Positions 19,925 through 62,216 of a stretch of DNA of 64,000 bases are shown here, piece by piece. The stretch comes from Escherichia phage vB_Eco_F31. The notes beneath the pieces were generated by a model. It did not search any database. It was not told where the DNA came from and saw only the letters and a list, made by a program, of their open reading frames with translations. Numbering within the stretch: the first letter of the stretch is position 1; each line of letters begins with the position of its first letter. The DNA lies in the sequence record OP870147.1; one strand, given 5' to 3'. Made by a program: the position numbers and the translations under genes.

Positions 19925-19959
19925 GGATGATAGTATCACACATCCATGTGTTTGTAAAC
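19925..19959 (-). promoter_or_regulatory. Early promoter with 5-bp inverted repeat (GGATG/CATCC) flanking the -10
   Basis: Minus strand GTTTACaaacacatGGATGtgtgaTACTATCATCC. Confidence 0.45.
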
Positions 19960-22046
19960 TATCCTTGGACAAACTTAAACGGAACTGATTCTAAATCCAT
20001 TAAAGATGCTAACAATTTCAAACCTTTAGGTGCACTAGTTTTTTCTACAAATGAGGAGAACGATACCGGCTCATCCGATTCGATTTCACCCGTCATAGCA
20101 ACCACCTCGCCTGTTTCCATGAGAACATCACCATCGTAAATGACAGCTTCGTCCAACTGGTCCGAGGACATGACTTCAGCTTGAATAAATTTAAGGTTGG
20201 ATTCTAAACCTGCACCAGTGTCAGATGACGCATCTGTAATTTTATTTATCTGCAAGAGAATGCCTCTAGGCAAAATAATTTCTTGCTCATTAGGGTGATT
20301 ACTCAATTGGCCTGGATAAATCACGTTAACTTTATGAGCGCCATCAATAGCCCATCCAACATTAACACGAATTTGTTCTGGCGCATGCATAGCGGTACGT
20401 GCCAGGCTAGGAGAAATAGTAACACCTTCATCATTATTGTCAATGTTAAGCTCTTTTCGAACTTCTTCAGGAGCAAGTCCAAGGGCAACGTTCTCTTTAA
20501 ACCCACCGAAAATAATAGGAGCTAGTGAAGTGGAAACATAGTTTCTGAAGTAGAATACCTTATTTTTAACCATTGCTTCGTAAATAGGCATTCTGATAGA
20601 CTGAGCTCTATATAACGTTAGTCCTTCAGGTAAACGGTCTCCATTTAAAAACGCCGAATCAAGACCATCAATAGCGCGTTTAACTTCATCTTCATCTGCA
20701 ACATCGTAAAAATCTGGTTTATAACGACCTAACAACATATTATTGATATCGGTATACGCAGAAGAGGCATATTCGCGAATAGCTCGTTTTTCAGCAACAG
20801 AGTATTGTTTAGGGTCCCGATTCATTGTTATATTAAAGGTGCCTCTAGCCGATTCTCGTGCATAAGTATACATCACATTAGACAAGAACGCTGATTTACG
20901 TTGTTTCCAAGTTTTTTCAGATACTTCAGCTAAAACATCGTCGGCCAGTTGGAAATTATCACGTCTAAAATCTTCAAACCATTCGTCTTTAATAGAGTCC
21001 GCAATTTCGTTTGCAGCTTCAACAAAAGCAGCTAATGCTTTAACAGATGTTGTTTTTTCAGTTTTAATTTTCTTAGCAAACTTTTCTAAAGTTGGCTTAA
21101 TAACACTACCATAAGAAACTTCATCAGCAAATTTAAAGGATTCATCAATACGATTATAAATCTTATTTTCGATATCAGCAACTAAAGTGCCTTTTGCTGT
21201 GGACGATGCTTGGGCTAGTACGATTTCATATGCTTCAGGAAGTAATTCGGCCGTAGCTGGGCCACTAACTTCTTTAGCAGAATTTTCGTATTTCTGGAAT
21301 AACTCACCTTCTTGTCGGTCAGCTTCTAAAGATTGACTTGCTGCAATAGCACGACGAGAAATTTTAGTGCGAGCAATAACAGGTTTATCTTTACGTTTTT
21401 CTTCTACCGCGGCAATAGAACCAGCGATAGCCGTTTCTTTGGTGACCTTTTCACCGGTCTTTTTACTCACATAAACTTCGCCAACATCAGAATCTACTTT
21501 CGTATACAACTCTGTGTTAATGTTAGGGATGCCTTTAATATCTTCAATGTTGGCATTTTTACGAACCATCATCACATAGGTGTGTTTACCTGTGAATTGA
21601 TACATTGCCGACAATACTTTAAAACGACCACCGGTTTTAGTAGAAACTAAACGAGCAAGAAGAGTTTGAAGCTGTTGTCCACGTCCTTTCAATTTCTTGG
21701 TAGGGAACCGGAACAGAACTGCATCCATACGAAGAGCTTTAACCTGTTCATATACTGTATTGAAAATGGTGTTGATTGCATCAATAGGAGCAGGACCAAG
21801 GCCATTTTTCAATTCAGCGAGATTACCCTTTTCAGATAGACTCATAATAACAACATGAGCGTATTTGTCGCCAAGTTTAACTTGTTTTACGGCATCGCCT
21901 TCAGAAAGATAAGAGAATAAGCGAACTACGATGTTTGTATCGATATCACCAATTTTCCAGACTTGTGGAACTTTAGCTTTAGGGTTCAAATTGACGACAG
22001 GAAGACTGCCTTCAGATTCAAACACTTCATTTAATTGTTCAGACAT
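19959..22046 (-). CDS. alt: Alt ADP-ribosyltransferase (RNA polymerase alpha-subunit modifying, packaged protein)
   Basis: 695-aa ORF; recognisable blocks shared with T4 Alt (...VFYFRNYVSTSL..., ...LPRG..V.VNKITDAS..., C-terminal ...PFKFVQG) but more diverged than structural genes. Confidence 0.85.
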   Translation of the reverse strand: MSEQLNEVFESEGSLPVVNLNPKAKVPQVWKIGDIDTNIVVRLFSYLSEGDAVKQVKLGDKYAHVVIMSLSEKGNLAELKNGLGPAPIDAINTIFNTVYEQVKALRMDAVLFRFPTKKLKGRGQQLQTLLARLVSTKTGGRFKVLSAMYQFTGKHTYVMMVRKNANIEDIKGIPNINTELYTKVDSDVGEVYVSKKTGEKVTKETAIAGSIAAVEEKRKDKPVIARTKISRRAIAASQSLEADRQEGELFQKYENSAKEVSGPATAELLPEAYEIVLAQASSTAKGTLVADIENKIYNRIDESFKFADEVSYGSVIKPTLEKFAKKIKTEKTTSVKALAAFVEAANEIADSIKDEWFEDFRRDNFQLADDVLAEVSEKTWKQRKSAFLSNVMYTYARESARGTFNITMNRDPKQYSVAEKRAIREYASSAYTDINNMLLGRYKPDFYDVADEDEVKRAIDGLDSAFLNGDRLPEGLTLYRAQSIRMPIYEAMVKNKVFYFRNYVSTSLAPIIFGGFKENVALGLAPEEVRKELNIDNNDEGVTISPSLARTAMHAPEQIRVNVGWAIDGAHKVNVIYPGQLSNHPNEQEIILPRGILLQINKITDASSDTGAGLESNLKFIQAEVMSSDQLDEAVIYDGDVLMETGEVVAMTGEIESDEPVSFSSFVEKTSAPKGLKLLASLMDLESVPFKFVQG

Positions 22047-22087
22047 AGTGTTTTCCTTTTAGTAATAATTTATATTTATGCCAAAAA

Positions 22088-22103
22088 GAGCCCGAAGGCT
22101 CTT
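22088..22103 (-). terminator. Terminator-like hairpin between the gene 30 cluster and alt
   Basis: Minus strand AGAGCCuucgGGCUCUuuuugg. Confidence 0.55.
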
Positions 22104-22290
22104 AATCCACAATCGGAAGCAAAGTACGATAAACTTCAAAATTAGAGCCTTTTTCGTACTTATCGAAATTGTCCATAAAAATATGATAGGAATCGTTATT
22201 AGGAAAATCTAATATAATCTGAGAGCAAGAGGTGGAAACATCTCCACCATCCTTCTTAGCTACAATAACTGTTTCTAAATAAGCTTTCAT
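22102..22290 (-). CDS. Hypothetical small protein between 30 and alt
   Basis: ORF with ATG overlapping gene 30 stop (TAATG); start chosen at internal Met of ORF-track 22102..22311. Confidence 0.4.
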   Translation of the reverse strand: MKAYLETVIVAKKDGGDVSTSCSQIILDFPNNDSYHIFMDNFDKYEKGSNFEVYRTLLPIVD

Positions 22291-23783
22291 TATAAACCTG
22301 TCTGGGACCACGGTCCAAATACGTCTTCAAACGAATCCGCTTCTGTTTTATCAAAACGGAACCCTTTAATAATTGGAAGGAAAATACCTACAGTTCCTTC
22401 ACGTCCTTTAGAATGAACCCAACCATTGCATTCACAATCAGCGATACGTCCAATTAATTTACCTTCACGAGCTTCGGCCATTAATCGTTCACGGTCCAAA
22501 TCATGACGCTCATCTAAAGGAATAAGAACCTTTACACCATCAACTGTTTTATGAGTTGTATCTTTAAAACCTGAACCACAATCGGTTGTAATACGACGAC
22601 AACGTGATACGAGTTCGACACCACCTAATTTGTTAGGGTCTTTAGAGTGTTCATAGTATCCTACAACTTCTAAAGCGATATCAATAACTTCTTTAAATTT
22701 AATTAGGTTCTTAGAGCGTTTGTTTTCCCAATATGAATCACGGTTTTTAAGGATAATACCTTCAAGACCTTGGTCAACATATTTTTTATAAACCACTTTA
22801 GCTTCGTCAAGATTACGAACTAACTGATTTTCAATTGGCTCAATTCGTTTAAAGCCTTCAGCCATATTTTCAAGAGCAGCAAAACGAACATCGTATTTCT
22901 GACCTTTAATTTTGCCATCAGAATAGACTTCATCTAAAGGAACATAGTCCCAGGCTTGAAGAACCATACCTTCAGCTTCTTTAGGAGAAATAGTCCCTTG
23001 AAGAGATTTATTTGCTAAACCGTTTGAAGTGCTACGGTCCGCAACTTGTACTTCTTCGGATTCTTCATTATCACCAAATAAGAACGACAGGTCATTTCCT
23101 GAGCTCACAGCCTTTTTAATATCAAATGAATGGTAAACTAATTCACCGTCGATTAAAACCCCATTAGGGTGTCTTTCACGAGCTTCTTTAGTCATTTCCA
23201 TTAGTTCATCTGCTAATAGAGTAAGACCATGATATTCGTTGCCGGCACGAGAAAAGAATTGAACACCATCATAGCGAACTTCAGCGAAACAACGAGCACC
23301 ATCGGCTTTTAATTGAGCAAATGCAGGCCATTTAATATTTTTAGTAATCAATTTCTCATCATATGCAGATGCTAACATCTGTGGTTGCAATTGAATAAGT
23401 CCAGGCCACACCTTATTCGCGATAGACACTGAAGCACCTACTTCAAGGTCGCGCATCATTACACGACGAAGGACTTCTACATCATCAGGTTTACCGTCAG
23501 CGATATAACCCATGAGCTCTTTAATTGCAGCATTACCAGTGAGTTTACGAGTGGCTAATGTGAACTCAATAAAATCCAACATGTCATCTAATTCAAGAAG
23601 ACCATACGCTTGAGACCTTTCACCTGGTCCTGGCCATTTCTTAATATAATACTGGATACCACGTGCATATGTTAAACGATACACACGTTCAAGTAATTTG
23701 TTGTCCTTATTTTTCTTAAGGATTTCCTGTTTTGTTTTAGTAGAACCGATCGCAGCTATTTGGTTTAAAATATCTAAAATCAT
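22290..23783 (-). CDS. 30: ATP-dependent DNA ligase gp30
   Basis: 497-aa ORF with adenylation motif KADGAR and N-terminus MILDILNQIAAIGSTKTKQEILKKNKDNKLL resembling T4 DNA ligase. Confidence 0.93.
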   Translation of the reverse strand: MILDILNQIAAIGSTKTKQEILKKNKDNKLLERVYRLTYARGIQYYIKKWPGPGERSQAYGLLELDDMLDFIEFTLATRKLTGNAAIKELMGYIADGKPDDVEVLRRVMMRDLEVGASVSIANKVWPGLIQLQPQMLASAYDEKLITKNIKWPAFAQLKADGARCFAEVRYDGVQFFSRAGNEYHGLTLLADELMEMTKEARERHPNGVLIDGELVYHSFDIKKAVSSGNDLSFLFGDNEESEEVQVADRSTSNGLANKSLQGTISPKEAEGMVLQAWDYVPLDEVYSDGKIKGQKYDVRFAALENMAEGFKRIEPIENQLVRNLDEAKVVYKKYVDQGLEGIILKNRDSYWENKRSKNLIKFKEVIDIALEVVGYYEHSKDPNKLGGVELVSRCRRITTDCGSGFKDTTHKTVDGVKVLIPLDERHDLDRERLMAEAREGKLIGRIADCECNGWVHSKGREGTVGIFLPIIKGFRFDKTEADSFEDVFGPWSQTGL

Positions 23784-24049
23784 TTGATGTCCTCGATTTT
23801 GGTTACGGTTCTATTATAAGCCACTTCATCTAGAAGCGATTTCAGCGTTTTCTGATAAGTTGTAATCCATTTACCGAGTCCTTCAACATAGTATTCTGAA
23901 ATGTAGATGAACCCTTGTTCAACACACTCTTTAAATATTTCTGTGTCTTTTACTGAACGAAACAATGGCCAGTCTCGAAAGAACATGTTAACGTGACCGT
24001 AGTCACGTGTGGTATTTTTGCCATCTGTAATATCATGAACTACAAACAT
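23780..24049 (-). CDS. Hypothetical protein (T4 30.1 position)
   Basis: 89-aa ORF, start overlaps upstream stop. Confidence 0.55.
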   Translation of the reverse strand: MFVVHDITDGKNTTRDYGHVNMFFRDWPLFRSVKDTEIFKECVEQGFIYISEYYVEGLGKWITTYQKTLKSLLDEVAYNRTVTKIEDIK

Positions 24050-24058
24050 AATTAACCC

Positions 24059-24883
24059 TTAACAATTTATAGACCAAGTCCATTTAGACGAATCTAAAGG
24101 AAAGTTTTGAATCGTCCACCACGGCTGCATATCAGTTGGTCCTGGGGTTCGCCAGGTATATGGAGTACGTGTTGTCGAGGGGCCACCAATTTGATTAGGC
24201 CATGCACCTGGACTTGTTGCACCAGATTCTTTAAGCAAATCCGCCAATCGTTTTAAAAGGTCTTCACGATCTGAATCTGAATTATTCTTAGGCAGAACCA
24301 AACGAGATTCAATATCATCCCACGTGTGTACACGTTGTGCAGTACGAGGAATGGCATCACGTTCACCACGAGCCAACCAATAAATCGGTACATTAAGAAT
24401 TTCTGCCGCATGGTCACAATGATGAGCTAAATCGTCAACGTAACAAATTACGTTATATTTTGTTTTAGCTAGTTCGAATAATTGTTCCTTTGAAGAATCA
24501 TGACCACACATCATTACTTCAGAGAAAGCGCCTGGGAACAAAGCATTCAAATTAAATTGTCTATTCAATCGAGCATCAATTGAATCACCTAGCGCCGTCA
24601 CGGCTACAAAATTATAGTCTTCTTTTAGTTTATTGATAACTCGAAGAGCATCAGAATAAGGCGCTAAGTAACGAATAAAATCAGAGCTATTATATTTTTC
24701 TATTAATTGTTTACCAAGGTTATCGTCGGTATTGAACAGTTTACCAGGAGAAATAAATTTTTCGTCCTGAATCATTTTTAAAATATGTTCTAATGGAAGG
24801 TTATATTTTTGGGCAAAATAAGGAAGTCCAGATTGCCAGCTTAAACATACACCATCAATATCAGTCAAAATAGTAGGCTTCAT
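24059..24883 (-). CDS. HAD-superfamily phosphatase-like protein (T4 30.2 position)
   Basis: 274-aa ORF with N-terminal LTDIDGV motif (DxDG(T/V) HAD motif I); W/P-rich C-terminal tail. Confidence 0.55.
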   Translation of the reverse strand: MKPTILTDIDGVCLSWQSGLPYFAQKYNLPLEHILKMIQDEKFISPGKLFNTDDNLGKQLIEKYNSSDFIRYLAPYSDALRVINKLKEDYNFVAVTALGDSIDARLNRQFNLNALFPGAFSEVMMCGHDSSKEQLFELAKTKYNVICYVDDLAHHCDHAAEILNVPIYWLARGERDAIPRTAQRVHTWDDIESRLVLPKNNSDSDREDLLKRLADLLKESGATSPGAWPNQIGGPSTTRTPYTWRTPGPTDMQPWWTIQNFPLDSSKWTWSINC

Positions 24884-25347
24884 AAAGAGTCTCTTAATAG
24901 GTTTAACACGTCAATAAATTCATCTTCAGTTAGTATTGTATCATCTTTTGTTAGGTGGCTGGCCATGCTGTGCTTCAAAATTTTTCCTTTAGAGGCTTGT
25001 AAGGCATCACGAAACCCCTTGTTTTGGATCGCGGCTTCAAAATATGCATTTGTGTATAATTCTTTCCACGCTTCGGAGTATCTTGAAAATGGAACTCCTA
25101 ACCAGAAGAGAGTCCCACGGTCCTGAGCTCTTGCGTAAGACCTTCCAGCTTGCTGTGCAGCCAATCCAGACAACCCAAATATACGTCTTTGTTGTTCAAC
25201 ATTTTTCACCTTACATCCTTGGAGAAATCCTTCAAGACCTCCGAATTGAATACCATCCATAACAAAAGGCCATTGAGCAAAGTTACTTAATGCACATGAC
25301 GGCCACTTGAAATTACTTCTTATTTCTAATTCAGACATCTTTAACAC
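24880..25347 (-). CDS. Hypothetical protein (T4 30.3 position)
   Basis: 155-aa ORF, overlapping stop/start. Confidence 0.55.
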   Translation of the reverse strand: MLKMSELEIRSNFKWPSCALSNFAQWPFVMDGIQFGGLEGFLQGCKVKNVEQQRRIFGLSGLAAQQAGRSYARAQDRGTLFWLGVPFSRYSEAWKELYTNAYFEAAIQNKGFRDALQASKGKILKHSMASHLTKDDTILTEDEFIDVLNLLRDSL

Positions 25348-25549
25348 TTATAATTTCAACATCAGCCCAATGTCCGTATCCAGGTATACGGTCTTCGATA
25401 GATAAATTTCTGTCATTTTTAGGCATTTTAATTGACGTAACGTATGGTTCTAAACGGTTTTCCGCGTAATATGGAAAAACGTCGGTTACACGATAAGTAA
25501 CTTCAATCATTTCCATACCAAACAATTTCTGGATTAATTTATTCAACAT
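25331..25549 (-). CDS. Hypothetical protein
   Basis: 72-aa ORF in 30.x cluster. Confidence 0.45.
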   Translation of the reverse strand: MLNKLIQKLFGMEMIEVTYRVTDVFPYYAENRLEPYVTSIKMPKNDRNLSIEDRIPGYGHWADVEIISVKDV

Positions 25550-25736
25550 GTTTCAACCCTTTAATAGGAGATAACTCTTTACCCATACGTATGTCAGAAG
25601 TCCCATCAACCCATTGAACAGCATACGCTTCATTGATAATTCCAGCGGCAGTTTTAAATTCGTTGAGAACTTTAAAAATCATCCCAGGGATTCCAACACC
25701 TTTTAATTGGACTGTTTGTGCTATTAAAAATTTCAT
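25539..25736 (-). CDS. Hypothetical protein
   Basis: 65-aa ORF in 30.x cluster. Confidence 0.45.
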   Translation of the reverse strand: MKFLIAQTVQLKGVGIPGMIFKVLNEFKTAAGIINEAYAVQWVDGTSDIRMGKELSPIKGLKHVE

Positions 25737-25790
25737 ATTTTTCCACTTACTAAAGAAATCATTATACTCTAATCCGTCCTTGGATGTACA

Positions 25791-26405
25791 CTACTTAATG
25801 AAATTAATTTCTACCGGATGAACAACAGGTTGAGCAGTGATATATTGAGTAATTGCTTTCATGACTAGAGCTTCAGAACCAGGATTTTTCTCAACGAATT
25901 CACGTGCTAGGTTATGAGCTTCGAGTTCACTCAATAAACCGGAACGCTGGCATCCACGGTCTTGAGTACCCTGTTCAGATAAAAGGACTACTACATATTT
26001 TTCATCGTCGTAGGGCTTAGCCAGTTGAGCAAATGTTCCTTTACTTCCAAAAGGAGAGTTATGTCGCCACATCACACCGTGAGGAGTTTCAACCTTCGTA
26101 TATTCGTGCGGTCCATTTTTCTTAGTTTCTTGATGTGGAACTTCATAGACCTTAGGGTTAGGACATTCAATAAAATGCTCATCTAAATCGGTCGAGAATA
26201 TTAAAGTAAAACAATTACTGAATTTACCAACACCGGCCTGATAAATTTTACCTTCAGAAGTTCTAATTTCACAAACTGAGCCGGCATCAGTAACTTCTAA
26301 AACTTCAAAAGGCTCAATAAGGTCATATGAGAACATGTTTTTAAGGCGTGGAGTAATATCCCCATTTTTAAAATTCATTTTATAAAAAGTATTAACTTTA
26401 AACAT
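25791..26405 (-). CDS. Hypothetical protein; start moved to internal ATG with RBS
   Basis: ORF-track start 26435 lies inside hairpin 26418-26433; ATG at 26405 is preceded by GAGGA (MFKVNTFYK...). Confidence 0.5.
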   Translation of the reverse strand: MFKVNTFYKMNFKNGDITPRLKNMFSYDLIEPFEVLEVTDAGSVCEIRTSEGKIYQAGVGKFSNCFTLIFSTDLDEHFIECPNPKVYEVPHQETKKNGPHEYTKVETPHGVMWRHNSPFGSKGTFAQLAKPYDDEKYVVVLLSEQGTQDRGCQRSGLLSELEAHNLAREFVEKNPGSEALVMKAITQYITAQPVVHPVEINFIK

Positions 26406-26417
26406 AATTTCCTCAGT

Positions 26418-26433
26418 GGGAGCCGAAGCTCCC
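26418..26433 (-). other. Intercistronic UUCG hairpin between two 30.x genes, no U-tract
   Basis: Minus strand GGGAGCuucgGCUCCC directly upstream of RBS GAGGA. Confidence 0.5.
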
Positions 26434-26440
26434 AATTAAT

Positions 26441-26806
26441 TTAGATATCAAATTCGTTAAGAACTACATCAAAGATTGCTTCGAGATGTTCAGGTTTAGC
26501 TCGGTTACTCAGGATATGACGAATCCAAGTTTTAACCAGAAGTTTACGATTAACACCATTCCAGCAAGGATGAGTACCTAAATCACGCTGACGGAAATCA
26601 TCATCTAATGCAATTTTAAAATTTGAACCTTCCATCGTGATTGAAACCGTGATACCATTTTCAAATCGCATATAAACGTAATTAGGAGTCATGCACTGTT
26701 CGATTTCACAAACTGTACCGTTTTCGTGTTTCCATAAGCAAATAACTTCAGAAGAACCAGCAATACCGTTAGAAACATATTTACGTTCGAAGTTGGTGTA
26801 GTTCAT
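26441..26806 (-). CDS. Hypothetical protein
   Basis: 121-aa ORF with early promoter 26835-26876 upstream. Confidence 0.55.
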   Translation of the reverse strand: MNYTNFERKYVSNGIAGSSEVICLWKHENGTVCEIEQCMTPNYVYMRFENGITVSITMEGSNFKIALDDDFRQRDLGTHPCWNGVNRKLLVKTWIRHILSNRAKPEHLEAIFDVVLNEFDI

Positions 26807-26834
26807 TTTATTCTCCAGATGTTTAAGTTGTTTG

Positions 26835-26876
26835 TTGGTACAGGTCTATAATAACATAACCTGTACCAAAGTAAAC
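26835..26876 (-). promoter_or_regulatory. Early promoter with perfect 10-bp inverted repeat flanking the -10
   Basis: Plus TTGGTACAGGtctataataacataaCCTGTACCAAagGTAAAC; minus GTTTAC-N17-TATTAT. Confidence 0.55.
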
Positions 26877-26880
26877 TGGT

Positions 26881-27249: not shown

Positions 27250-27291
27250 TTTGTTCTCCAGGTTGTTTTATTGATTAGATGGTACAAGTCT

Positions 27292-27320
27292 ATAGTAACA
27301 CATCCTACAGGAGAGTAAAC
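27292..27320 (-). promoter_or_regulatory. Early promoter (GTTTAC-N17-TACTAT)
   Basis: Minus strand GTTTACtctcctgtaggatgtgtTACTAT. Confidence 0.5.
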
Positions 27321-27356
27321 ATCTTTTTAAACTTTTTCTGCCCTAAACGCACAAAA

Positions 27357-27374
27357 GGGAGACCGAAGTCTCCC
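27357..27374 (-). terminator. Terminator after the 59-aa basic protein gene
   Basis: Minus strand GGGAGACuucgGUCUCCCuuuugug. Confidence 0.65.
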
Positions 27375-27379
27375 TAAAA

Positions 27380-30865: not shown

Positions 30866-30905
30866 TGGTAGAGTTATAGTATCACAACTCCACCATGTTG
30901 TAAAC
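30866..30905 (-). promoter_or_regulatory. Early promoter with 8-bp inverted repeat (one mismatch) flanking the -10
   Basis: Plus TGGTAGAGttatagtatcacaaCTCCACCAtgttGTAAAC. Confidence 0.5.
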
Positions 30906-32973: not shown

Positions 32974-32996
32974 TTAGATTTCCTCAATTATCCATA

Positions 32997-33031
32997 GGAG
33001 CATTATACTCTGCTCCCGAGAGTTTGTAAAC
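32997..33031 (-). promoter_or_regulatory. Early promoter with 6-bp inverted repeat flanking a consensus TATAAT
   Basis: Plus GGAGCAttatactcTGCTCCcgagagtttGTAAAC. Confidence 0.55.
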
Positions 33032-34389: not shown

Positions 34390-34437
34390 GTGTTATTGAT
34401 AAAAGCCATAGTAACACCTTCCTTGGTGTTTGTAAAC
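34390..34437 (-). promoter_or_regulatory. Early promoter (GTTTAC-N18-TACTAT) for alc-like gene, weaker inverted repeat
   Basis: Plus GTGTTAttgataaaagccatagTAACACcttccttggtgtttGTAAAC. Confidence 0.45.
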
Positions 34438-35573: not shown

Positions 35574-35619
35574 TCAGTTAGTTTTTTTAAATTGTACCAC
35601 AATCCTTGTGGTATGTAAA

Positions 35620-42057: not shown

Positions 42058-42096
42058 GATAGGGCTACTATAACATAACCCTATCTTGTTATAAAC
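42058..42096 (-). promoter_or_regulatory. Early promoter with 7-bp inverted repeat flanking the -10
   Basis: Plus GATAGGGctactataacataaCCCTATCttgttATAAAC. Confidence 0.5.
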
Positions 42097-42546: not shown

Positions 42547-42577
42547 AACTTTTTCGGCAATTTACAGATACTCAAAA

Positions 42578-42595
42578 GGGAGACCGAAGTCTCCC
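42578..42595 (-). terminator. Terminator after gene 32
   Basis: Minus strand GGGAGACuucgGUCUCCCuuuuga, identical hairpin to 3984, 27357 and 50902. Confidence 0.7.
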
Positions 42596-45813: not shown

Positions 45814-45843
45814 ATAGTAACACACTCATTTGAAAGCGTAAAC
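45814..45843 (-). promoter_or_regulatory. Early promoter for rnh, back-to-back with late promoter P34
   Basis: Minus strand GTTTACgctttcaaatgagtgtgtTACTAT. Confidence 0.5.
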
Positions 45844-50901: not shown

Positions 50902-50925
50902 GGGAGACTTCGGTCTCCCATTTTT
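50902..50925 (+). terminator. Terminator after gene 35
   Basis: GGGAGACttcgGTCTCCCatttttg. Confidence 0.75.
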
Positions 50926-55310: not shown

Positions 55311-55319
55311 GGAGGTATT

Positions 55320-55979
55320 ATGGCAACACCAAAAGTATCATTTTCGCCTAGTGATATTCTATTTGGGTTGCTAGATCGTATTTTCAAAGATAACGCTACT
55401 GGAAAGGTTTTAATGTCCCGAGTAGCGGTAATTATTCTTTTGTTCCTAATGGCACTAATATGGTACAAAGGAAGTATTTTGCTGGATTATTATGTAAGAT
55501 CTAAGTATGATACTTATACTGAAATAATCCAAAAAGAACGAGCTTTACGTTTTGAATCTGCGGCTCTAGAACAACTGCAAATAGTTCATATCTCATCTGG
55601 TGCAGATTTTAGTGCTGTGTATTCTTTCAGACCTAAAAACTTAAATTATTTCGTCGACCTTATAGCTTATGAAGGCAAACTGCCTAGCACAATTTCTGAA
55701 AAGTCCCTTGGGGGATTCCCGGTGGATAAAACGGCCAATGAATATATAATTCATTTAAGTGGCCGTCATTTCTCGTCTAAATCAGAATTTGCATTTTTGC
55801 CTACAAAATCTAAAACTGCCGAACTTTCTTATATGTATAGTTGTCCATACTTTAATTTGGATAACATCTATGCTGGAACTGTGACGATGTATTGGTATAA
55901 GGGGAATAATATACTTGAGGAAGATCGCTTAGCAGCTATATGCAACCAAGCGGTCCGAATACTAGGAAGGGCTAAATAA
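55320..55979 (+). CDS. t: Holin T
   Basis: 219-aa ORF ...SFSPSDILFG.LDR.FKDNATGKVL.SRVAV.ILLF.MA..WY... matching T4 T; TATAAATA at 55292-55299. Confidence 0.95.
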   Translation: MATPKVSFSPSDILFGLLDRIFKDNATGKVLMSRVAVIILLFLMALIWYKGSILLDYYVRSKYDTYTEIIQKERALRFESAALEQLQIVHISSGADFSAVYSFRPKNLNYFVDLIAYEGKLPSTISEKSLGGFPVDKTANEYIIHLSGRHFSSKSEFAFLPTKSKTAELSYMYSCPYFNLDNIYAGTVTMYWYKGNNILEEDRLAAICNQAVRILGRAK

Positions 55980-56252
55980 TTAGTTGTTAGAATACATCGC
56001 TAAATGACGATAAATATTTTCAAAACCTTCATTGAATTCACTAATCAGTGTTTTCTTTTCTTCGGCAGTTAAATTTGTAATTAGTTTTCTAAAAGAATTC
56101 TGATTTAGCTGCCGACCATCTTTTTTAATTCCAATCTCATTCAAGAATCCGATGAAACTTGCTCGGTCTTCAACAATATCTTCCCTAGAGAATTTAATCA
56201 AAATAGAAGCAATAGTAATAATTTCACGTACAATTTCAATATCTTTATTCAT
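55980..56252 (-). CDS. asiA: Anti-sigma-70 factor AsiA
   Basis: 90-aa ORF MNKDIEIVREIITIASILIKFSREDIVEDRASFIGFLNEIG... matching T4 AsiA; early promoter 56287-56316. Confidence 0.95.
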   Translation of the reverse strand: MNKDIEIVREIITIASILIKFSREDIVEDRASFIGFLNEIGIKKDGRQLNQNSFRKLITNLTAEEKKTLISEFNEGFENIYRHLAMYSNN

Positions 56253-56286
56253 AACGTTTTATTCATTCCACTTAATTGATAGGAGT

Positions 56287-56316
56287 ATAGTACCATTATC
56301 AGTGTTGATTGTAAAC
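56287..56316 (-). promoter_or_regulatory. Early promoter for asiA
   Basis: Minus strand GTTTACaatcaacactgataatggTACTAT. Confidence 0.5.
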
Positions 56317-56449
56317 GGCTTTTTCCACGCTTTTAACGTAATCAATGTAGTCTTCCTGTTCATACGAGTGTAAGACCAAGAATTGAACTAATAGTTCATT
56401 ATAGACTAAAGCCTCACGCTCACGTTCGGCCTCTACTACGTTCTGAAGA

Positions 56450-56749
56450 TTATGACTCATATCGTTCCTTATAACTATCAATATAGTCCTGTATGTCGAA
56501 AAACGACATTTCATATTCTAGGGCGTTAAGAGCCCGTTCTTCAGTATAGTCAGAACCAAAGACGATAGTGATTTCGCCAGGCTTCATGTGATTGAAATCG
56601 ACACTAAAAGGAATACGAGAACATACTTCGTCTGCCATATCTACGATAACACTACGACACACTTCTCGGTTAACCTGATAAAGCTCTGCAAGTTCTTCAC
56701 ATCGAATAACAAGTTCAGTGGCAGGTTTTTCTTTGATTTTAGTAAGCAT
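56450..56749 (-). CDS. Acidic protein next to asiA, candidate Arn-like protein; start uncertain (56749 or 56836)
   Basis: 99-aa D/E-rich frame from internal Met of ORF-track 56450..56836; T4 has arn at this position; sequence identity not verified. Confidence 0.35.
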   Translation of the reverse strand: MLTKIKEKPATELVIRCEELAELYQVNREVCRSVIVDMADEVCSRIPFSVDFNHMKPGEITIVFGSDYTEERALNALEYEMSFFDIQDYIDSYKERYES

Positions 56750-56832
56750 AGTCTTTACCCTTATGTTTTTGTTTGCGTTTAGATTGAAGTTCTGATTTCT
56801 TCTTGTCCTTATGGACAGAAGCCTTATTGAAA

Positions 56833-57051
56833 TCATGTTTTGCTACAAGATTGTTCATAATGATTTATAACCTCATTTAAACATTTGTCTGTGAAAGAAA
56901 ACTTTTTAGCCACAGAACATTCGATAATGTGCTCTTTCAAATCTTTAGAGTCAGTATAACCCATCTCAGTAATAAAGTGGCGAATTAAAGCTTTATTCTT
57001 ATCATTAACAGAATTAAAATAATCTGCTTTAGAATCAATTATTCTCATCAT
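56833..57051 (-). CDS. Hypothetical protein
   Basis: 72-aa ORF, overlapping stop/start chain. Confidence 0.45.
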   Translation of the reverse strand: MMRIIDSKADYFNSVNDKNKALIRHFITEMGYTDSKDLKEHIIECSVAKKFSFTDKCLNEVINHYEQSCSKT

Positions 57052-57316
57052 CTAATTTCCTTAATTGATATTGCAACGAGCTAATAATTTCTTCGTTCAT
57101 TTTAATATACATGTCGCGCAAGAAAGGTTTTAACCCATCACGAATAATTGCTAACGTATCACCTTTACATAAATTAACCAAATAAGGATGGTCTAAAGCA
57201 TCCCAACCAGGCTGATTAGCATACATACCATAATTTTCTTCCATCATAGCATTCAGGCGTTTGATATGATTAATGTGGGCTTCAATAGCATCAATCTGGA
57301 GTTGTTTAAGATTCAT
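57035..57316 (-). CDS. Hypothetical protein
   Basis: 93-aa ORF. Confidence 0.45.
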   Translation of the reverse strand: MNLKQLQIDAIEAHINHIKRLNAMMEENYGMYANQPGWDALDHPYLVNLCKGDTLAIIRDGLKPFLRDMYIKMNEEIISSLQYQLRKLDDENN

Positions 57317-57777
57317 TAGTAAAGATCCTCAGAGTAAAGTTCTTTTTCATTACCACCACGTTCAATACGTACTTGTCCAGCGTAAGTTGCAATAATCATT
57401 GCTTCTTCACGTGTCCAATAATTACTATATTGGTCAATAAACCCTTGGTCATCATCACAAACTTGTTGAGTAACTAATTGAGGTTTAACTACATCTAAAA
57501 CTTCTGCCATATCTTTAGAATAATGACGAGCACCCGGAATAATAAGAGTTCGTCCATCTTTTAATTTAAAACGGTTGGCTGCGCAGACAATTCGTCGTTG
57601 ATACTTTTGGTTTTCATCCCAATACAGAGTCTGCCAACAGATTTCAGGAACTTCATCTAAAACATTTTGTTCTGTATATTCACCACCGTAAGAAGCTAAT
57701 TTAGCAGCCAGACTTTCCGGAGTCTCACGAGATAAAGCTTTATCTAACAGAGCTAAACGTTCTTTAAAAGTTTTCAT
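57316..57777 (-). CDS. Hypothetical protein
   Basis: 153-aa ORF, ATGA overlaps with neighbours. Confidence 0.5.
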
Positions 57778-58103
57778 TTAAACCATCCTTTAATACGTTG
57801 CCAAATAGATTTTTGTGCTTGTTTATTTACACCAATCGAACGAATAACCGGTTGTGACTGCTGATATTCTTTATAATCTTCTTTATAGATTTCGTAAGCT
57901 GCATCAACAAATGAACTGATCGCTGCCATGTAGTTTTTACGAAGGCCAAATGGCGCGTCATTATTTTCACGAATAACCGTATATTGGCCTGCTTTAATCT
58001 TTACAATTGTCCCTAAATAAGCCCCGTGGTACCAAATATCCCATCCTTCCTGAGTAGGTTCTGCACATTTACGAAGTTCGTTAATAATATTCAGCTTATT
58101 CAT
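57774..58103 (-). CDS. Hypothetical protein
   Basis: 109-aa ORF directly downstream of motA. Confidence 0.5.
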
Positions 58104-58113
58104 TATGTATTCC

Positions 58114-58746
58114 TCACAGTACGTTAGTTACAAGGGTAATGATTTCTTTGGACACATTAGGGAAGTCAATGTAAGTATATTTACCACCGATCTTAATCTT
58201 AACATCATTTTCAAGAGAAGTAAACAGCTTTGATTCAGTTTCTGACATGTTGTATGCAAAGATTCTAAGAGAACCGTCTCGACGAATTTCGATCTGACGA
58301 ATACCTAGAACTCGTTTTGCAAATCGAACTTCCAAGTTACTACGGTTTTCACCAATTTCTTTAACTTCAACTTTATCTTTAATATTTTCAAAAACAAAGT
58401 TTGCTAATTCATGCATTTCAGGAGTAACTCCACGTGCTTTTCTAGTGTTACGTTTCTGAAGAAGTTCTGGAGCATTTTCTTGGGCAAAGAGGTCTGCAGC
58501 TTTTTGGATAATATCCATTGCTTCGCCTGTTGCTACAAGTCCATCACCGGATTTTTCGACTAAACCTTTCTTAATCAATACACCAATGTTAGAGTTAACA
58601 ACCGATGCATTGTATTCTGCTTCCAGAGCTTCACGGACATTGGCAGCAGTGGTGAAGTTGTTCTTAATGATATAAACCATTATTGCAGCAGTTTTTTCAT
58701 TCAGAACGTTTTCAGAAGCTTTGATGATGTAAGTAACTTTAGACAT
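58114..58746 (-). CDS. motA: MotA middle-transcription activator
   Basis: 210-aa ORF MSKVTYIIKASENVLNEKTAAIMVYIIKNNFTTAANVREA...SNIGVLIKKGLVEKSGDGL matching T4 MotA; early promoter 58784-58812. Confidence 0.93.
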   Translation of the reverse strand: MSKVTYIIKASENVLNEKTAAIMVYIIKNNFTTAANVREALEAEYNASVVNSNIGVLIKKGLVEKSGDGLVATGEAMDIIQKAADLFAQENAPELLQKRNTRKARGVTPEMHELANFVFENIKDKVEVKEIGENRSNLEVRFAKRVLGIRQIEIRRDGSLRIFAYNMSETESKLFTSLENDVKIKIGGKYTYIDFPNVSKEIITLVTNVL

Positions 58747-58783
58747 TTTATTTCTCCAAATTAGTACTTGTTTTGATAGGTCT

Positions 58784-58812
58784 ATAATATCATGTTTGAA
58801 GCAAAAGTAAAC
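58784..58812 (-). promoter_or_regulatory. Early promoter for motA
   Basis: Minus strand GTTTACttttgcttcaaacatgaTATTAT. Confidence 0.55.
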
Positions 58813-58850
58813 TTTATTTTGGGCTCTTTTTCCAAAAGCCCTGGTAAAAT

Positions 58851-59066
58851 TTACAAACTCATTTCTTTAATAAGGCCAATAAGTTTTGCCTTTTTAGAAC
58901 GAAGCTTTTCTAAATGATGTCCATTTGAACCGCGAACCACTAAAGAATTGATTTCAACTTCTAAGAAATTTAATTCTTCAACAAGTGCTTTACGGGGAGC
59001 ATTCATACCAGGTTTAACTTTACCGAAACGAGTAGTTGTGTTTTGGGTTAATTTCATTTTAGACAT
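58851..59066 (-). CDS. Hypothetical small basic protein
   Basis: 71-aa ORF with early promoter 59106-59134 nearly identical to the motA promoter. Confidence 0.5.
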   Translation of the reverse strand: MSKMKLTQNTTTRFGKVKPGMNAPRKALVEELNFLEVEINSLVVRGSNGHHLEKLRSKKAKLIGLIKEMSL

Positions 59067-59105
59067 TTTATTTCTCCAATTTGGTTGTTTTGTTTTGATA
59101 GGTCT

Positions 59106-59134
59106 ATAATATCATGTTTGAAGCACGTGTAAAC
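59106..59134 (-). promoter_or_regulatory. Early promoter for the 58851..59066 gene (near-duplicate of the motA promoter)
   Basis: Minus strand GTTTACacgtgcttcaaacatgaTATTAT. Confidence 0.5.
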
Positions 59135-59161
59135 TGTTTTGTGAGGAAAAAATGCACAAAA

Positions 59162-59177
59162 GGGAGCCAAAGCTCCC
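59162..59177 (-). terminator. Terminator after gene 52
   Basis: Minus strand GGGAGCuuugGCUCCCuuuugugc. Confidence 0.6.
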
Positions 59178-59253
59178 TAATCATGTTTGTCCAACCAATA
59201 TAGCCAAATCACTAGTGCAGCTATTGCACTGAGAAATCCTAAGGCTAGGGCAC

Positions 59254-60579
59254 TCAAAGTGCCTCCAAGTCTTTAGTGTACTCTGTCACAACATCAGTAG
59301 ACTTCCAATACTCATTTTCTTCTTTCTTAGCTTTAGCTTCTTCTGCTAGTTTACGTGCTTCATCGGAAGTGATATGGAAGATGTTAAGACCTACCAGTTT
59401 ATCGACATGTTCTTTATACATTTCGATTTGTGCTAGCTCTTCAGTCAAAGCTTTACGAGTCTTGCCCTGAATCACAATTTCACCGTTGATAACTTTTTTG
59501 ATGAAGTGTGCCTTAGCAAAAGCCAGTTTAAATGCTTTTTCAGATTCAAGGATTTTGTTATCAATACGTTTCTGAACGTAAGTCTTACGGACTTCAACAA
59601 AATCTTTGATTAAGTCCACTACGTTATCATAGACCGCTAATTTACCCTTTTCATTAATCACTGTGATGTTTTGTGAACGACGTTCGATGAGACTAAAATC
59701 TTTCATGATTTTTTCATGACGTAGCTCTTCATCATCAGGAAGCGAGTACTCTTTACGGAACTTCACCTTAAACCCAAAGCCGTGTTCACCACAATCATCT
59801 TCCCATGAGATTAGACCTTTGTCTTCTAACGGGTCAAGAACCTTACTCACATACGTTTCACGGTCGAATTTATATGGGATTTCAGTTATCTGCATTTGAG
59901 TGCGAGATGTGAACTTATATGTTCCGTGAATCTCATAGCGCCCATCAACTTCATGTACTTCACCACGGAATTCTGGGAATTCAACTTTTGGCTTAGTGAC
60001 ATTTTTACCTTGAAGAGCTTGTAATACAGCCTTTTTGACTGATTTAAAACTATGAGGCAGAATATTTGTTGCGTAACCGGTTGCAATACCAGAGACGCCA
60101 TTCAAAAGAACTGTCGGAATAATAGGAAGATAGAATTTTGGTGGAACATGTTCTTTATCTTCATGAGCTGGAGCATATTCAGTATCTTTATATACGTTAT
60201 AGAAATTTTTACTTACACGAGCAAAAATATAACGAGATGCTGCAGCTTTTTGGACTGTTCTAGAACCAAAGTTGCCTTGGCCATCTAACAGTGGATAGTT
60301 GTTGTTCCATGTGTTAGCCATCAATGCACCTGCATCTTGTGCAGAAGATTCACCATGGTGATAACCTAAATCTGCAACACCGCCTGCAATTGACGCAAGT
60401 TTATGAAATTTTTCTTTATTACCACGAGCCAAATCTAACGCACGATGAACCACAAAACGTTGAACCGGCTTAAATCCATCAATCATGTTTGGGATTGCAC
60501 GGTTTTCAACGGTGTACATAGCATATGCTAAGGCTTCGTTATCAATAATACTTTTTAGATTACGAGAATTCAATTGCAT
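59254..60579 (-). CDS. 52: DNA topoisomerase II medium subunit gp52
   Basis: 441-aa ORF (T4 gp52 ~441 aa) with type II topoisomerase A-subunit-like blocks; T4 synteny between motA and ndd. Confidence 0.88.
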   Translation of the reverse strand: MQLNSRNLKSIIDNEALAYAMYTVENRAIPNMIDGFKPVQRFVVHRALDLARGNKEKFHKLASIAGGVADLGYHHGESSAQDAGALMANTWNNNYPLLDGQGNFGSRTVQKAAASRYIFARVSKNFYNVYKDTEYAPAHEDKEHVPPKFYLPIIPTVLLNGVSGIATGYATNILPHSFKSVKKAVLQALQGKNVTKPKVEFPEFRGEVHEVDGRYEIHGTYKFTSRTQMQITEIPYKFDRETYVSKVLDPLEDKGLISWEDDCGEHGFGFKVKFRKEYSLPDDEELRHEKIMKDFSLIERRSQNITVINEKGKLAVYDNVVDLIKDFVEVRKTYVQKRIDNKILESEKAFKLAFAKAHFIKKVINGEIVIQGKTRKALTEELAQIEMYKEHVDKLVGLNIFHITSDEARKLAEEAKAKKEENEYWKSTDVVTEYTKDLEAL

Positions 60580-60585
60580 ATTTTC

Positions 60586-60724
60586 ACCATATTAATGAAC
60601 TAATAACCATTATAACATCTGAAATGAAAAGCACTACTTGGATTAGTCCAAACATCACACCGTAGTACAGAACCGTAAGCAACAACAAGAGCCCGAAGGC
60701 TCCTGCTAAGATTTTCTTAATCAT
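60586..60724 (-). CDS. Small hydrophobic membrane peptide (46 aa)
   Basis: MIKKILAGAFGLLLLLTVLYYGVMFGLIQVVLFISDVIMVISSLIW*; ATG overlaps upstream stop (TAATG); position of T4 ac/stp; below ORF-track cutoff. Confidence 0.4.
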
Positions 60725-60870
60725 TACTCACCTTTTAACACGTTAAAAAGAGCTAAGACCGCTAAGGTGCCTTGTGATACGGCCTGTTGAAATACTGTTG
60801 TTTCGCTTGTAACTAAAGTGTTAACGAATAAAACCGACCAACACAGCAATGCAATAATCCATGCTACCAT
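60724..60870 (-). CDS. Small hydrophobic membrane peptide (48 aa)
   Basis: MVAWIIALLCWSVLFVNTLVTSETTVFQQAVSQGTLAVLALFNVLKGE*; RBS GAGG; below ORF-track cutoff. Confidence 0.4.
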   Translation of the reverse strand: MVAWIIALLCWSVLFVNTLVTSETTVFQQAVSQGTLAVLALFNVLKGE

Positions 60871-60922
60871 TTTAATTACCTCAAAAATAAATTAAAGGCC
60901 CAACTTAATAGGCCCGTATAAA

Positions 60923-61369
60923 TTAGTAACTCTGCAGAATGAATTTGAAATTATCAGCCAGAAGACGGTTCATTTCAGTGAGTGTTTGATATTCTGATGT
61001 ATGGTTGCGAGTGAATGTCAGAGCCAATTGACCTTTACCATAACCAGTGGTCAGTGGTTTCATGTTCTTAGCTGCAACAAAGATTACATCATATTCAATA
61101 TTGTTAGTGCCCATGGTACGGGCTAGTTGCGAACGGCCTTGACGAATGTGAGAAAGAATTGCATCCAACCCTTGTTTAGAACGTTGACGTCCTACAAAGA
61201 ATCGTGCTGCTACTTGTCGCCAATCAGATGAACCTTTAACAAAGAAGTAAAAACCTTCACGAGAACGAAACTCTTTAGAAACTTCAGAACCGTATTCACC
61301 ATTACGAACTACTGCAACAACTTCACCACCAACTGCCAGAAGGTCTTTACGAGTTAAATATTTGGACAT
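60923..61369 (-). CDS. ndd: Nucleoid disruption protein Ndd
   Basis: 148-aa ORF with ...FYVGNQRSKQG..A.LSHIRQ.RSQLART...KMKPLTTG.GKGQLAL.FTRNH.SEYQTL.EMNR.LADNFKF.LQ.Y matching T4 Ndd. Confidence 0.92.
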
Positions 61370-61406
61370 GCTAATTTCCTCAATTGATTAATGTTTTTGT
61401 AATCCA

Positions 61407-61441
61407 TGAGAGCATTATACTCTGCTCTCAAGAGTTTGTAC
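61407..61441 (-). promoter_or_regulatory. Promoter for ndd with 8-bp inverted repeat flanking a consensus TATAAT
   Basis: Plus TGAGAGCAttatactcTGCTCTCAagagtttgtac; -35 is TTGTAC rather than GTTTAC. Confidence 0.45.
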
Positions 61442-61445
61442 AATT

Positions 61446-61646
61446 TTATTCGGCTATATCAGAACGTTCAAAAAGCTCTTCAACAGTTAAACATTCAGTG
61501 TCATCTTCAATAAAGAATCGAGTCCAACACGTTGGGGCGATACAGTTATGAGTTTGTCCGGCGATAGAAGCTACACGAATAAGCTGCTGGCCATTATTCA
61601 GGACAAATTTTTCACCAATTTCAACATCTTTAAAAAGCTTAGCCAT
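61446..61646 (-). CDS. Hypothetical protein
   Basis: 66-aa ORF with early promoter 61667-61704. Confidence 0.5.
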   Translation of the reverse strand: MAKLFKDVEIGEKFVLNNGQQLIRVASIAGQTHNCIAPTCWTRFFIEDDTECLTVEELFERSDIAE

Positions 61647-61666
61647 TTTGTGTTCCTCATGTTTCA

Positions 61667-61704
61667 GTAGGACTACTATACCATAATCCTACCTTGTTGT
61701 AAAC
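61667..61704 (-). promoter_or_regulatory. Early promoter with 6-bp inverted repeat flanking the -10
   Basis: Plus GTAGGActactataccataaTCCTACcttgttGTAAAC. Confidence 0.5.
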
Positions 61705-61896
61705 AATTAAATTACATTAAAATATGTTAAAGCCAACCATGTTCCAGTGAACGAACATGCGATGTAAAACCACGCATCACAAATTGTTCTTAGTACAATA
61801 AGAAGTGCATTTTTCATAAGTACCTCAACACAATTGAAAATATTATACAAATCATTGGGATACTAAGCAACCATATTCCTATCCACATTTTAGAGC

Positions 61897-62160
61897 TCAT
61901 ATCTCAACTTCCGCGAGTTCCATATATCCTTTGTTGATAACCTCTTTAAGGTCTTTAGAAAGAATAACACCAAAATGGTCGTTCATATGTCCATTAACTA
62001 AACGAGTTATTTCGGCTTCAGATGACATATAAGGCACGTCTGAGTCCCAATGAGATAGTCCCAAATGGGTATAAATCATCCCTTCGTCATCTGCGGTGTT
62101 GTACATTGAAACAAATTCGCCTGTTACTTTATGTTTTGCGTAGAAAAATTTAAATTTCAT
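61897..62160 (-). CDS. Hypothetical protein
   Basis: 87-aa ORF with early promoter 62180-62216. Confidence 0.5.
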   Translation of the reverse strand: MKFKFFYAKHKVTGEFVSMYNTADDEGMIYTHLGLSHWDSDVPYMSSEAEITRLVNGHMNDHFGVILSKDLKEVINKGYMELAEVEI

Positions 62161-62179
62161 GATGTTATCCTCTTTTAGA

Positions 62180-62216
62180 TAGGACTACTATATCATAGTC
62201 CTACTTAGTTGTAAAT
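62180..62216 (-). promoter_or_regulatory. Early promoter with 7-bp inverted repeat flanking the -10
   Basis: Plus TAGGACTactatatcatAGTCCTActtagttGTAAAT. Confidence 0.45.

Follow-up and report, generated by a model that had tools for sequence, protein, structure and literature searches.

Stem-loops embedded in the early promoters of a Mosigvirus: a probable case of hairpins belonging to read-through RNA

Why would a phage place an inverted repeat around the -10 box of an early promoter? In 64,000 nucleotides of Escherichia phage vB_Eco_F31 (OP870147.1; this whole stretch is what we call the window), about half of the predicted early promoters had been noticed to have the -10 hexamer bracketed by a short inverted repeat, with arms that differ from site to site and a geometry that does not. 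The original prediction placed the structure in the DNA, as a cruciform or hairpin presenting the -10 box, or as the target of a structure-specific factor. Three questions have to be answered: whether the repeats exceed chance, whether the structure belongs to DNA or to RNA, and why only some promoters carry it. The answer that we favor, with a probability of roughly 0.7, is that each site joins a promoter and a stem-loop in one composite element of the PeSL (promoter-early stem-loop) type (Arbiol et al. 2010, PMC2839356) in a Mosigvirus, an RB69-like T-even phage, and that the stem-loop is an RNA hairpin of read-through transcripts.

The early genes of the window are on the minus strand, and the motif GTTTAC-N17/18-TAYWRT occurs 15 times, in all cases on that strand, where 0.25 occurrences would be expected. 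The list of 16 promoters proposed originally changes: three of the sites have variant -35 boxes, one or two bases away (GTTTAT at 42096, ATTTAC at 62216, TTGTAC at 61443), and 35620, 34437 and 7183 had been overlooked. As the sequence past the -10 box is semi-conserved (AGNCCTATCAA), the control used is a flank-swap permutation, in which each spacer is paired with the downstream flanks of the other promoters, and which keeps the position-specific composition. Relative to flank swaps, Watson-Crick stems of at least 5 bp are found in 10 of the 18 window promoters with 3.6 expected (P = 2.5 × 10⁻⁴), and stems of at least 6 bp in 5 of the 18 with 1.05 expected (P = 1.2 × 10⁻³). The mean duplex energy of the window promoters is -7.4 kcal/mol, versus -4.5 kcal/mol in flank swaps (P < 5 × 10⁻⁵).

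All eight predicted inverted repeats are found where they had been placed and with the arms described, and seven of them are stable as sense-strand RNA, at -11.4 to -17.9 kcal/mol and z-scores of -3.7 to -7.4 against dinucleotide shuffles. All are on the minus strand. The hairpin TTGGTACAGGT/ACCTGTACCAA at 26835..26869 encloses the -10 box TATTAT (26848-26853) of the promoter at the 30.8-like/30.7-like gene junction; its RNA minimum free energy (MFE) is -17.9 kcal/mol (z -4.8), and the upstream stop is 4 nt 5′ of the -35 box. The hairpin TGGTGGAGTT/AACTCTACCA at 30866..30895 belongs to the promoter of the cd.3-like/cd.2 junction (-10 box TACTAT, 30876-30881; -16.9 kcal/mol, z -5.5); the arms are those predicted, and what had been called its one mismatch is an internal G·U wobble on the sense strand. 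Three sites are paralogous promoter copies: GATAGGGTT/AGCCCTATC at 42058..42085 (-10 box TATAGT, 42067-42072; the GTTTAT variant; -16.3 kcal/mol, z -7.4), GGTAGGATT/AGTCCTACT at 61666..61693, G·U pairs included (TATAGT, 61675-61680; -13.6 kcal/mol, z -4.4), and GTAGGACT/AGTCCTAT at 62179..62204 (TATAGT, 62187-62192; the ATTTAC variant; -13.2 kcal/mol, z -4.4). Likewise paralogous are TGAGAGC/GCTCTCA at 61407..61430 (TATAAT, 61414-61419; the TTGTAC variant; -12.6 kcal/mol, z -3.7) and GGGAGC/GCTCCT at 32996..33017 (TATAAT, 33002-33007; upstream stop overlapping the -35 box; -11.4 kcal/mol, z -3.7). The eight sites are thus not fully independent, but the paralogous copies differ by compensatory changes, for example from A-U to G-C between 61407 and 32997. 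The eighth site, GGATG/CATCC at 19925..19945 in the promoter of the alt/alt.-3 junction (-10 box at 19930-19935), is weak: at -4.7 kcal/mol and z -0.6 it is, taken alone, indistinguishable from chance, and its bracket pairing competes with an ACACA/TGTGT stem inside the spacer. G·U pairs extend six of the eight stems.

The arms follow a tighter geometry than had been described. The 5′ arm occupies the upstream half of the spacer, at about -28 to -18, and the 3′ arm the discriminator and start region, at about -6 to +4. In the dominant register, the 5′ arm stops exactly 4 nt 5′ of the hexamer and the 3′ arm starts directly past it, which makes the loop the 10 nt of the extended -10 (NNNN plus hexamer). 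In RNA folds the stem often extends into this loop, with hexamers such as TATAGT pairing with CTAT or TTAT in the spacer and leaving 6-nt loops. It follows from the geometry that a transcript begun at the embedded promoter holds the 3′ arm only, and that both arms are present solely in RNA that reads through from upstream.

Is the structure conserved? We collected 80 syntenic loci from viral contigs (1.5 Mb), anchored on dCMP deaminase and gp52, with anchor identities of 47-100%. They gave 326 promoters, which reduce to 236 unique cores and 146 clusters. Bracket stems of at least 7 bp are present in 30 of the 146 clusters with 12.1 expected (permutation P < 2 × 10⁻⁴), and the excess over motif-preserving controls seen in the window is thus seen in its relatives as well. 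The dominant register accounts for 15 of the 28 strong hairpin clusters and the 10-nt loop for 19 of the 28, with off-register counts at background. In an alignment of the 146 representatives, unselected and in fixed register, 43.2% of the cells are paired versus 39.0±0.9 in shuffles, and the covariation score is 0.210 versus 0.155±0.009, a value not reached in any of 500 shuffles. Both the paired fraction and the covariation score are above those of every slid-register control.

The same signal can be read in individual orthologues, across the Tevenvirinae and in T4 itself, which has bracket stems at two early promoters. One is Pe133295 (Pe133.3), annotated as an early promoter in the T4 record and the orthologue of window promoter 30905; the other is Pe129.9, the orthologue of the promoter at 26835..26869, with arms TGGTACAGG/CCTGTACCG. 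The arms at the cd.3/cd.2 junction are GGTGGAGTT/AACTCTACC in the window, GGTAGAGTT/AGCTCTACC in T4 and its relatives (Pe133.3), and GGTAGGACT/AGTCCTACC in others, with two double compensatory changes and wobble intermediates. One compensatory series among orthologues runs through GGTGGAG/CTCTACC, GGTAGAG/CTCTACC and GGTAGGAC/GTCCTACC, and another promoter family has CCGGAAGT/ACTTCCGG, CTGGAAG/CTTCCAG and CTGGAAGT/ACTTCCGG. The arms are therefore kept by compensatory and G·U changes. The view that selection acts on structure rather than on arm sequence is borne out by register, covariation and compensation, with one correction: the 3′ arm lies inside the semi-conserved AGNCCTATCAA and is partly constrained by it, so that the arm sequences are less free than had been assumed. 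Moreover, the class of stem-loop can change while a stem-loop is kept. Some relatives have a spacer-internal CACCAcggaTGGTG at the cd.3/cd.2 junction instead of the bracket, and at the alt/alt.-3 junction the stem-loop is, depending on the genus, of the bracket, spacer-internal or Shine-Dalgarno-pairing class. Because orthologous sites keep a stem-loop while its class changes, these comparisons point to selection for a hairpin at the gene junction, and not for a particular way of displaying the -10 box.

To which molecule does the structure belong? Under a strand-neutral definition of the hairpins, 30 of 35 fold more stably as sense RNA than as the complement, with means of -12.0 versus -9.5 kcal/mol (P = 2 × 10⁻⁴). 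Four internal mismatches have at least three Watson-Crick pairs to either side, and all four are G·U when read on the sense strand (composition-matched null, about 15%); no A·C mismatch, the signature of a wobble on the antisense strand, is found among the strong stems. As evidence, the energy asymmetry carries more weight than the count of G·U versus A·C. Folded as DNA, each strand of the same sequences reaches -3 to -10 kcal/mol, with loops of 10-14 nt and with G·T or A·C mismatches; such weak hairpins with such loops are unfavorable for cruciform extrusion. The G·U bias, the stability of the sense strand and the presence of the 3′ arm only in promoter-proximal RNA together argue that the structure belongs to read-through RNA.

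It remains to explain why some early promoters have the structure and others do not. The feature had been described as one of a subset, which is correct, and the subset falls among the promoters in which an upstream stop abuts the -35 box. Every window promoter that has a strong embedded stem-loop follows a co-directional open reading frame (ORF) whose stop codon touches the -35 box, at offsets of -12 to +1. Two promoters that also abut the upstream stop have their stem-loop placed inside the spacer: ACCACAAggaTTGTGGT at 35595..35613 (-8.3 kcal/mol) in promoter 35620-35591 of the denA/rnlA junction, where the stop overlaps the -35 box, and AACACCaaggaaGGTGTT at 34413..34430 (-7.3 kcal/mol) in promoter 34437-34408 of the rnlA/alc junction. 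The unstructured promoters are of two kinds. Those of the first kind lie behind a GC-rich terminator with a T-run or behind the hairpin 58821-58841. The terminators are canonical intrinsic ones: GGGAGACTTCGGTCTCCC+TTTTG at 27352..27374, 5′ of promoter 27320-27292, an identical copy at 42573..42595, 5′ of promoter 42546-42518, and AGGGAGCTTTGGCTCCCT+TTTG at 59157..59178, 5′ of promoter 59134-59106. Those of the second kind, at 45814..45843 and 4312-4341, lie behind a divergent plus-strand gene, and no read-through transcript is expected there.

The association is strong in the window, with strong embedded stem-loops in 9 of 11 stop-abutting promoters versus 0 of 6 others (Fisher P = 0.0023). 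The relatives agree: any embedded stem-loop is present in 64 of 97 stop-abutting clusters versus 16 of 49 others (P = 1.9 × 10⁻⁴). A threshold-free test compares the MFE of the sequence that reaches from the 3′ edge of the -35 box to +18. Its median is -7.0 kcal/mol for stop-abutting promoters, 31% of which are at -10 kcal/mol or below, versus -4.1 kcal/mol for terminator-preceded promoters, where 0 of 25 reach that value (Mann-Whitney P = 1.5 × 10⁻⁴). In the subset anchored on cd, a bracket hairpin and a canonical upstream terminator never occur together, with 22 promoters having the bracket only, 17 the terminator only and 36 neither (P = 0.0017). Embedded hairpins and upstream terminators are thus complementary in their distribution.

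One promoter was excluded from the context statistics. At 7154-7183 (minus strand), an exact motif match lies within a small ORF annotated in JK45, followed by a CCGAGacagCTCGG hairpin, and could be either an internal promoter or a match by chance.

The mechanism that we propose starts from packing. When the stop of one early gene touches the -35 box of the next promoter, there would be no space for a separate terminator, and the hairpin would be written into those positions of the promoter whose sequence is unconstrained, with the constrained 10 nt of the extended -10 and hexamer left as the loop. Packing of this kind explains both the conserved geometry and the restriction to a subset of promoters. 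The RNA hairpin would form in sense transcripts reading through from upstream promoters, directly past the stop of the preceding early gene, and it would serve as the 3′ hairpin of the upstream message, defining or protecting its 3′ end. Transcripts from the embedded promoter, having the 3′ arm only, would remain unstructured. As for biochemical role, we infer that an attenuator, a barrier to 3′-exonucleases after downstream cleavage or termination, or both, is most likely; the complementarity with canonical terminators lends indirect support to attenuation or termination of upstream transcription.

Several observations weigh against this reading. The embedded hairpins have no U-tract past the 3′ arm (a mean of 1.3 T in the next 8 nt, and 0 of 35 with at least 5), which makes efficient intrinsic termination unlikely, and a terminator scan flags none of them. 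On both grounds we rejected the canonical intrinsic terminator as a description of the elements. The 5′ arm would also be opened transiently by a ribosome that terminates at the adjacent stop. The count of internal G·U pairs is small (4 versus 0 A·C), did not change when the data were doubled, and is suggestive only; moreover, the conserved promoter bases could force some of the inner G·U pairs. The association with context is not absolute, since 33 of the 97 stop-abutting clusters are without an embedded stem-loop at the thresholds used, and in the full set the mutual exclusion of bracket and terminator is weaker than in the cd-anchored subset (2 with both, 31 bracket only, 24 terminator only, 89 neither; P = 0.067). 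The calls of ORFs and terminators in the related loci were made by simple rules. In the literature, we found no paper mapping T4 transcript ends.

Could the structure serve the downstream gene instead of the upstream one? Read-through and promoter-proximal RNAs would then be told apart by their structure, with consequences for translation, RNase E access or stability. We consider this unlikely, even though only read-through RNAs hold both arms, and even though T4 genes e, soc, 49 and I-TevI offer a precedent (PMC3014915). In relatives, long stems that mask the Shine-Dalgarno sequence do take their 5′ arm from the spacer slot (at least 9 bp in 15 of 144 clusters versus 0.34 expected). At the eight window sites, however, about 12-30 nt separate the end of the 3′ arm from the Shine-Dalgarno, which leaves the ribosome-binding site unpaired with the arm, and on these distances we rejected sequestration there. 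Discrimination by transcript origin would also leave the complementarity with upstream canonical terminators unexplained.

The stems that reach the Shine-Dalgarno form a second class of promoter-embedded helix. Here, the spacer arm lies right past GTTTAC, and its partner is the Shine-Dalgarno region of the downstream gene, as in CCTCGTTTGTT/AACAAACGAGG and ATCCTCATTTTGTTG/CAACAAAATGAGGAT. Sites in the related loci include L009:4879, L025:5546, L022:4200, L031:5230, L018:5234, L036:13532 and L042:14329, and T4 (AF158101) has the class at about 136336, upstream of alc, and at about 123093, upstream of alt.-3. The arms covary strongly at the alc promoter; the alc promoter of the window (34437) is without this helix. 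By analogy, the class looks like an early-promoter version of the logic of e, soc, 49 and I-TevI, in which a gene would be translated only from its own promoter.

One may also imagine, as a speculation of which we are doubtful, that T-even early regions follow a general transcript-origin code, to which the embedded stem-loops would belong. The spacer would give the 5′ strand, and the 3′ partner would be chosen by the outcome required. With the discriminator as partner, the result might be a stop or insulator independent of a U-tract, where a σ70-carrying RNA polymerase pausing on the embedded -10 box would replace the kinetic role of the missing U-tract. With the Shine-Dalgarno as partner, alc and alt.-3 would be translated only from their own early promoters. 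To our knowledge, neither gating of the e/soc type at early promoters nor pause-assisted termination without a U-tract has been described.

Another explanation, quite improbable in our judgment, is that the repeats are a substrate or a scar of the modular shuffling that Arbiol and Comeau attribute to PeSLs, with no function in RNA. The paralogous promoter copies in the window would fit, as would the recombination between elements and the mini-circles reported in the PeSL papers, and the T4 record notes that the Pe133.3 loop was once reported as its inverted complement. On the other hand, the compensatory and G·U-biased substitutions and the energy asymmetry between sense and antisense imply selection on an RNA helix, and what homologous exchange requires is promoter sequence in common, not an inverted repeat. 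The T4 annotation deserves a comment of its own. A misc_feature at 133300-133313 of AF158101 reads 'inverted complement of previously reported sequence; corrects the early promoter Pe133295', and its 14 bp are exactly the loop and the closing pairs of the bracket hairpin. An invertible-loop switch, which this record prompted us to consider, was rejected: among 52 hairpins in 81 sequences, none has a flipped loop.

The DNA-level element of the original prediction (a cruciform, a single-strand hairpin or the site of a structure-specific factor) would present or modulate the -10 box, and so tune the activity of early promoters or their shut-off. Some facts suit it. The hexamer is always in the loop, the register is fixed, perfect repeats of 10-11 bp exist (for instance at 26835-26869), and the mechanism by which T4 early promoters are shut off is stated to be incompletely understood. 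We nonetheless hold it to be improbable. The mismatches are G·U on the sense strand, where the opposite strand would have A·C; 30 of 35 hairpins favor the sense strand; and the DNA hairpins are weak with loops of 10-14 nt. The feature follows the context of the upstream gene and not the sequence of the promoter, being absent behind terminators and divergent genes, which also tells against a structure-specific promoter factor. Orthologous sites swap to stem-loops that do not enclose the -10 box, and promoter-derived transcripts hold the 3′ arm alone. In σ70 open complexes, the region of the 5′ arm remains duplex. The wobble asymmetry, the weak DNA energies and the dependence on context led us to reject the cruciform.

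Chance complementarity between G/T-rich spacers and an A/C-rich consensus past the -10 box is very improbable for the set as a whole, and was rejected, because flank swaps keep the same composition and are exceeded, as are the slid-register controls, even if the 3′ arm does overlap the semi-conserved AGNCCTATCAA and the weakest site, 19925, is no better than shuffles.

We now turn to the surroundings of these elements. An 8-kb part of the window has 98-99% identity with Mosigvirus-type T-even phages such as vB_EcoM_WFK and JK45, and by synteny with JK45 and T4 the window covers the early region hoc–uvsW–baseplate hub–alt–30–31–cd–pseT–alc–rnlA–denA–nrd–td–frd–32 and beyond. The 25 nt 5′ of the -35 boxes form an AT-rich tract (A+T of 74% versus 62% window-wide), the downstream ATG is 26-44 nt past the -10 box, and the flanking ORFs have 36-206 aa and are mostly hypothetical in the JK45 annotation. 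Most minus-strand early promoters conserve the element AGNCCTATCAA(C/A)AA after the -10 box (for example at 59100-59090, 42512-42502 and 4306-4296). It extends from the discriminator over the start site into the first transcribed bases, is present with or without a hairpin, constrains the 3′ arm, and may itself act as a promoter or leader signal.

Other repeated arrangements were seen in the same arrays. The spacer-internal stem-loops at 35595-35613 and 34413-34430 share with those at L022:19813, L031:19910, L019:8819, L046:3596 and L010:19231 the common form CAC(C)-AAGGA(N)-(G)GTG, so that an AAGGA-like loop recurs across unrelated promoters and genera. The cassette of GGGAGACTTCGGTCTCCC, with its UUCG tetraloop, and a T-run has at least three copies, at 27352-27374, 42573-42595 and 50902-50919, the last of which scores as bidirectional. 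The minus-strand segments 59134-59090, 58812-58768 and 42546-42502 are near-identical promoter copies (GCTTCAAACATGATAYTATAGACCTATCAA) almost devoid of secondary structure (about -1 kcal/mol), each behind a GC-rich hairpin, and they look like a duplicated terminator-plus-promoter cassette of the kind invoked for modular shuffling. Finally, at promoter 4341 (within 4341-4280, minus strand), the -35 box TTGTTTAC is complementary to GTAAACAA, which is located between the Shine-Dalgarno and the ATG of the downstream gene.

Read as RNA hairpins of the upstream message, the elements show how a very compact phage genome may fit two signals into the same 35 bp, one that ends a message and one that begins the next. 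The rule that the stop abuts the -35 box would account for the restriction of the structure to some early promoters. In annotation, it would be better to treat hairpins in T-even early promoters as features of the upstream transcript than as promoter elements. Predictors of terminators that rely on a U-tract will overlook hairpins embedded in this way.

How do these elements compare with known systems? No covariance model of Rfam matches anywhere in the window at gathering thresholds, and a known RNA family was rejected as an explanation. Neither hairpins nor inverted repeats at early promoters are mentioned in the reviews of T4 early transcription (PMC2988021) or in the RB69 genome paper (PMC1524935), which is why the feature could be thought undescribed. 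The general class had in fact been published, for other phages. The PeSLs of RB49 and phi1 combine an AT-rich tract and a strong early promoter with a stem-loop and with the Shine-Dalgarno and ATG of the next gene, and their stem-loops fall in five positional subclasses, among them stem-loops that lie in the interval from the -35 to the -10 box or that overlap the latter (PMC2839356). The same paper proposed a role as terminator or attenuator, found that one RB49 stem-loop terminates like rrnB T1 in a lacZ reporter, and regarded the T-even elements as analogues with weaker and more AT-rich stems. PeSLs were then described in T4/PST and KVP40/nt-1 by Comeau et al. 2014 (PMC4122927), with more variable stems in T-even phages, and a figure legend there places the T4/PST stems 'just upstream of the promoter'.

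The likeness is extensive. The window elements have the AT-rich tract, the early σ70-type promoter with 17±1 spacing, the superimposed or adjacent stem-loop, and the Shine-Dalgarno and start codon of the next small gene; they are intergenic in early hyperplastic gene arrays, and both spacer-internal and -10-overlapping positions are found in the window and in RB49. When run through our analysis, RB49 shows mostly GGGGATC…GATCCCC stems inside the spacer, and stems that bracket the -10 box at 119937, 114786 and 112374. The published interpretation is, like ours, a terminator or attenuator for upstream transcription. Of the features of a PeSL tested, the window elements have all but the polyG/polyC stem. 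In RB49 and phi1 the stems are polyG/polyC and mostly spacer-internal, whereas the window arms are of mixed sequence (for example TTGGTACAGG and GTAGGAC), and the stems mostly bracket the extended -10 with a fixed 10-nt loop. Unlike what the 2014 legend indicates for T4/PST, T4 Pe133.3 and Pe129.9 have bracket stems. Experimentally, termination by a PeSL was shown for the one RB49 stem-loop only, and the window elements are without a U-tract.

Two other systems share part of this design. In T4 genes e, soc, 49 and I-TevI, a late promoter lies inside the region that encodes the 5′ strand of an RNA helix (Uzan & Miller 2010, PMC3014915). There, as here, long upstream transcripts fold and those of the internal promoter do not, the 5′ arm being lost from the proximal RNA. 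Those promoters are late, however, and the 3′ strand covers the Shine-Dalgarno or the AUG, whereas the 3′ arms in the window end near +3 to +9. Rho-independent terminators likewise have a stable RNA hairpin directly past a gene, and the embedded hairpins are complementary in distribution to the true terminators of the same arrays. In contrast to these, the embedded hairpins have no U-tract, their loops are of 6-10 nt, and their stems have a lower GC content than the GGGAGACTTCGGTCTCCC+T4 terminators found in this genome.

We conclude that this is not a new kind of system but a Mosigvirus (and T4) case of the PeSL class. What our analysis adds to that class is the precise register, the sense-RNA signature and the rule that the stop abuts the -35 box, together with the extension of the PeSL concept to T4 orthologues and to Mosigvirus, whose elements are not catalogued in the two PeSL papers.

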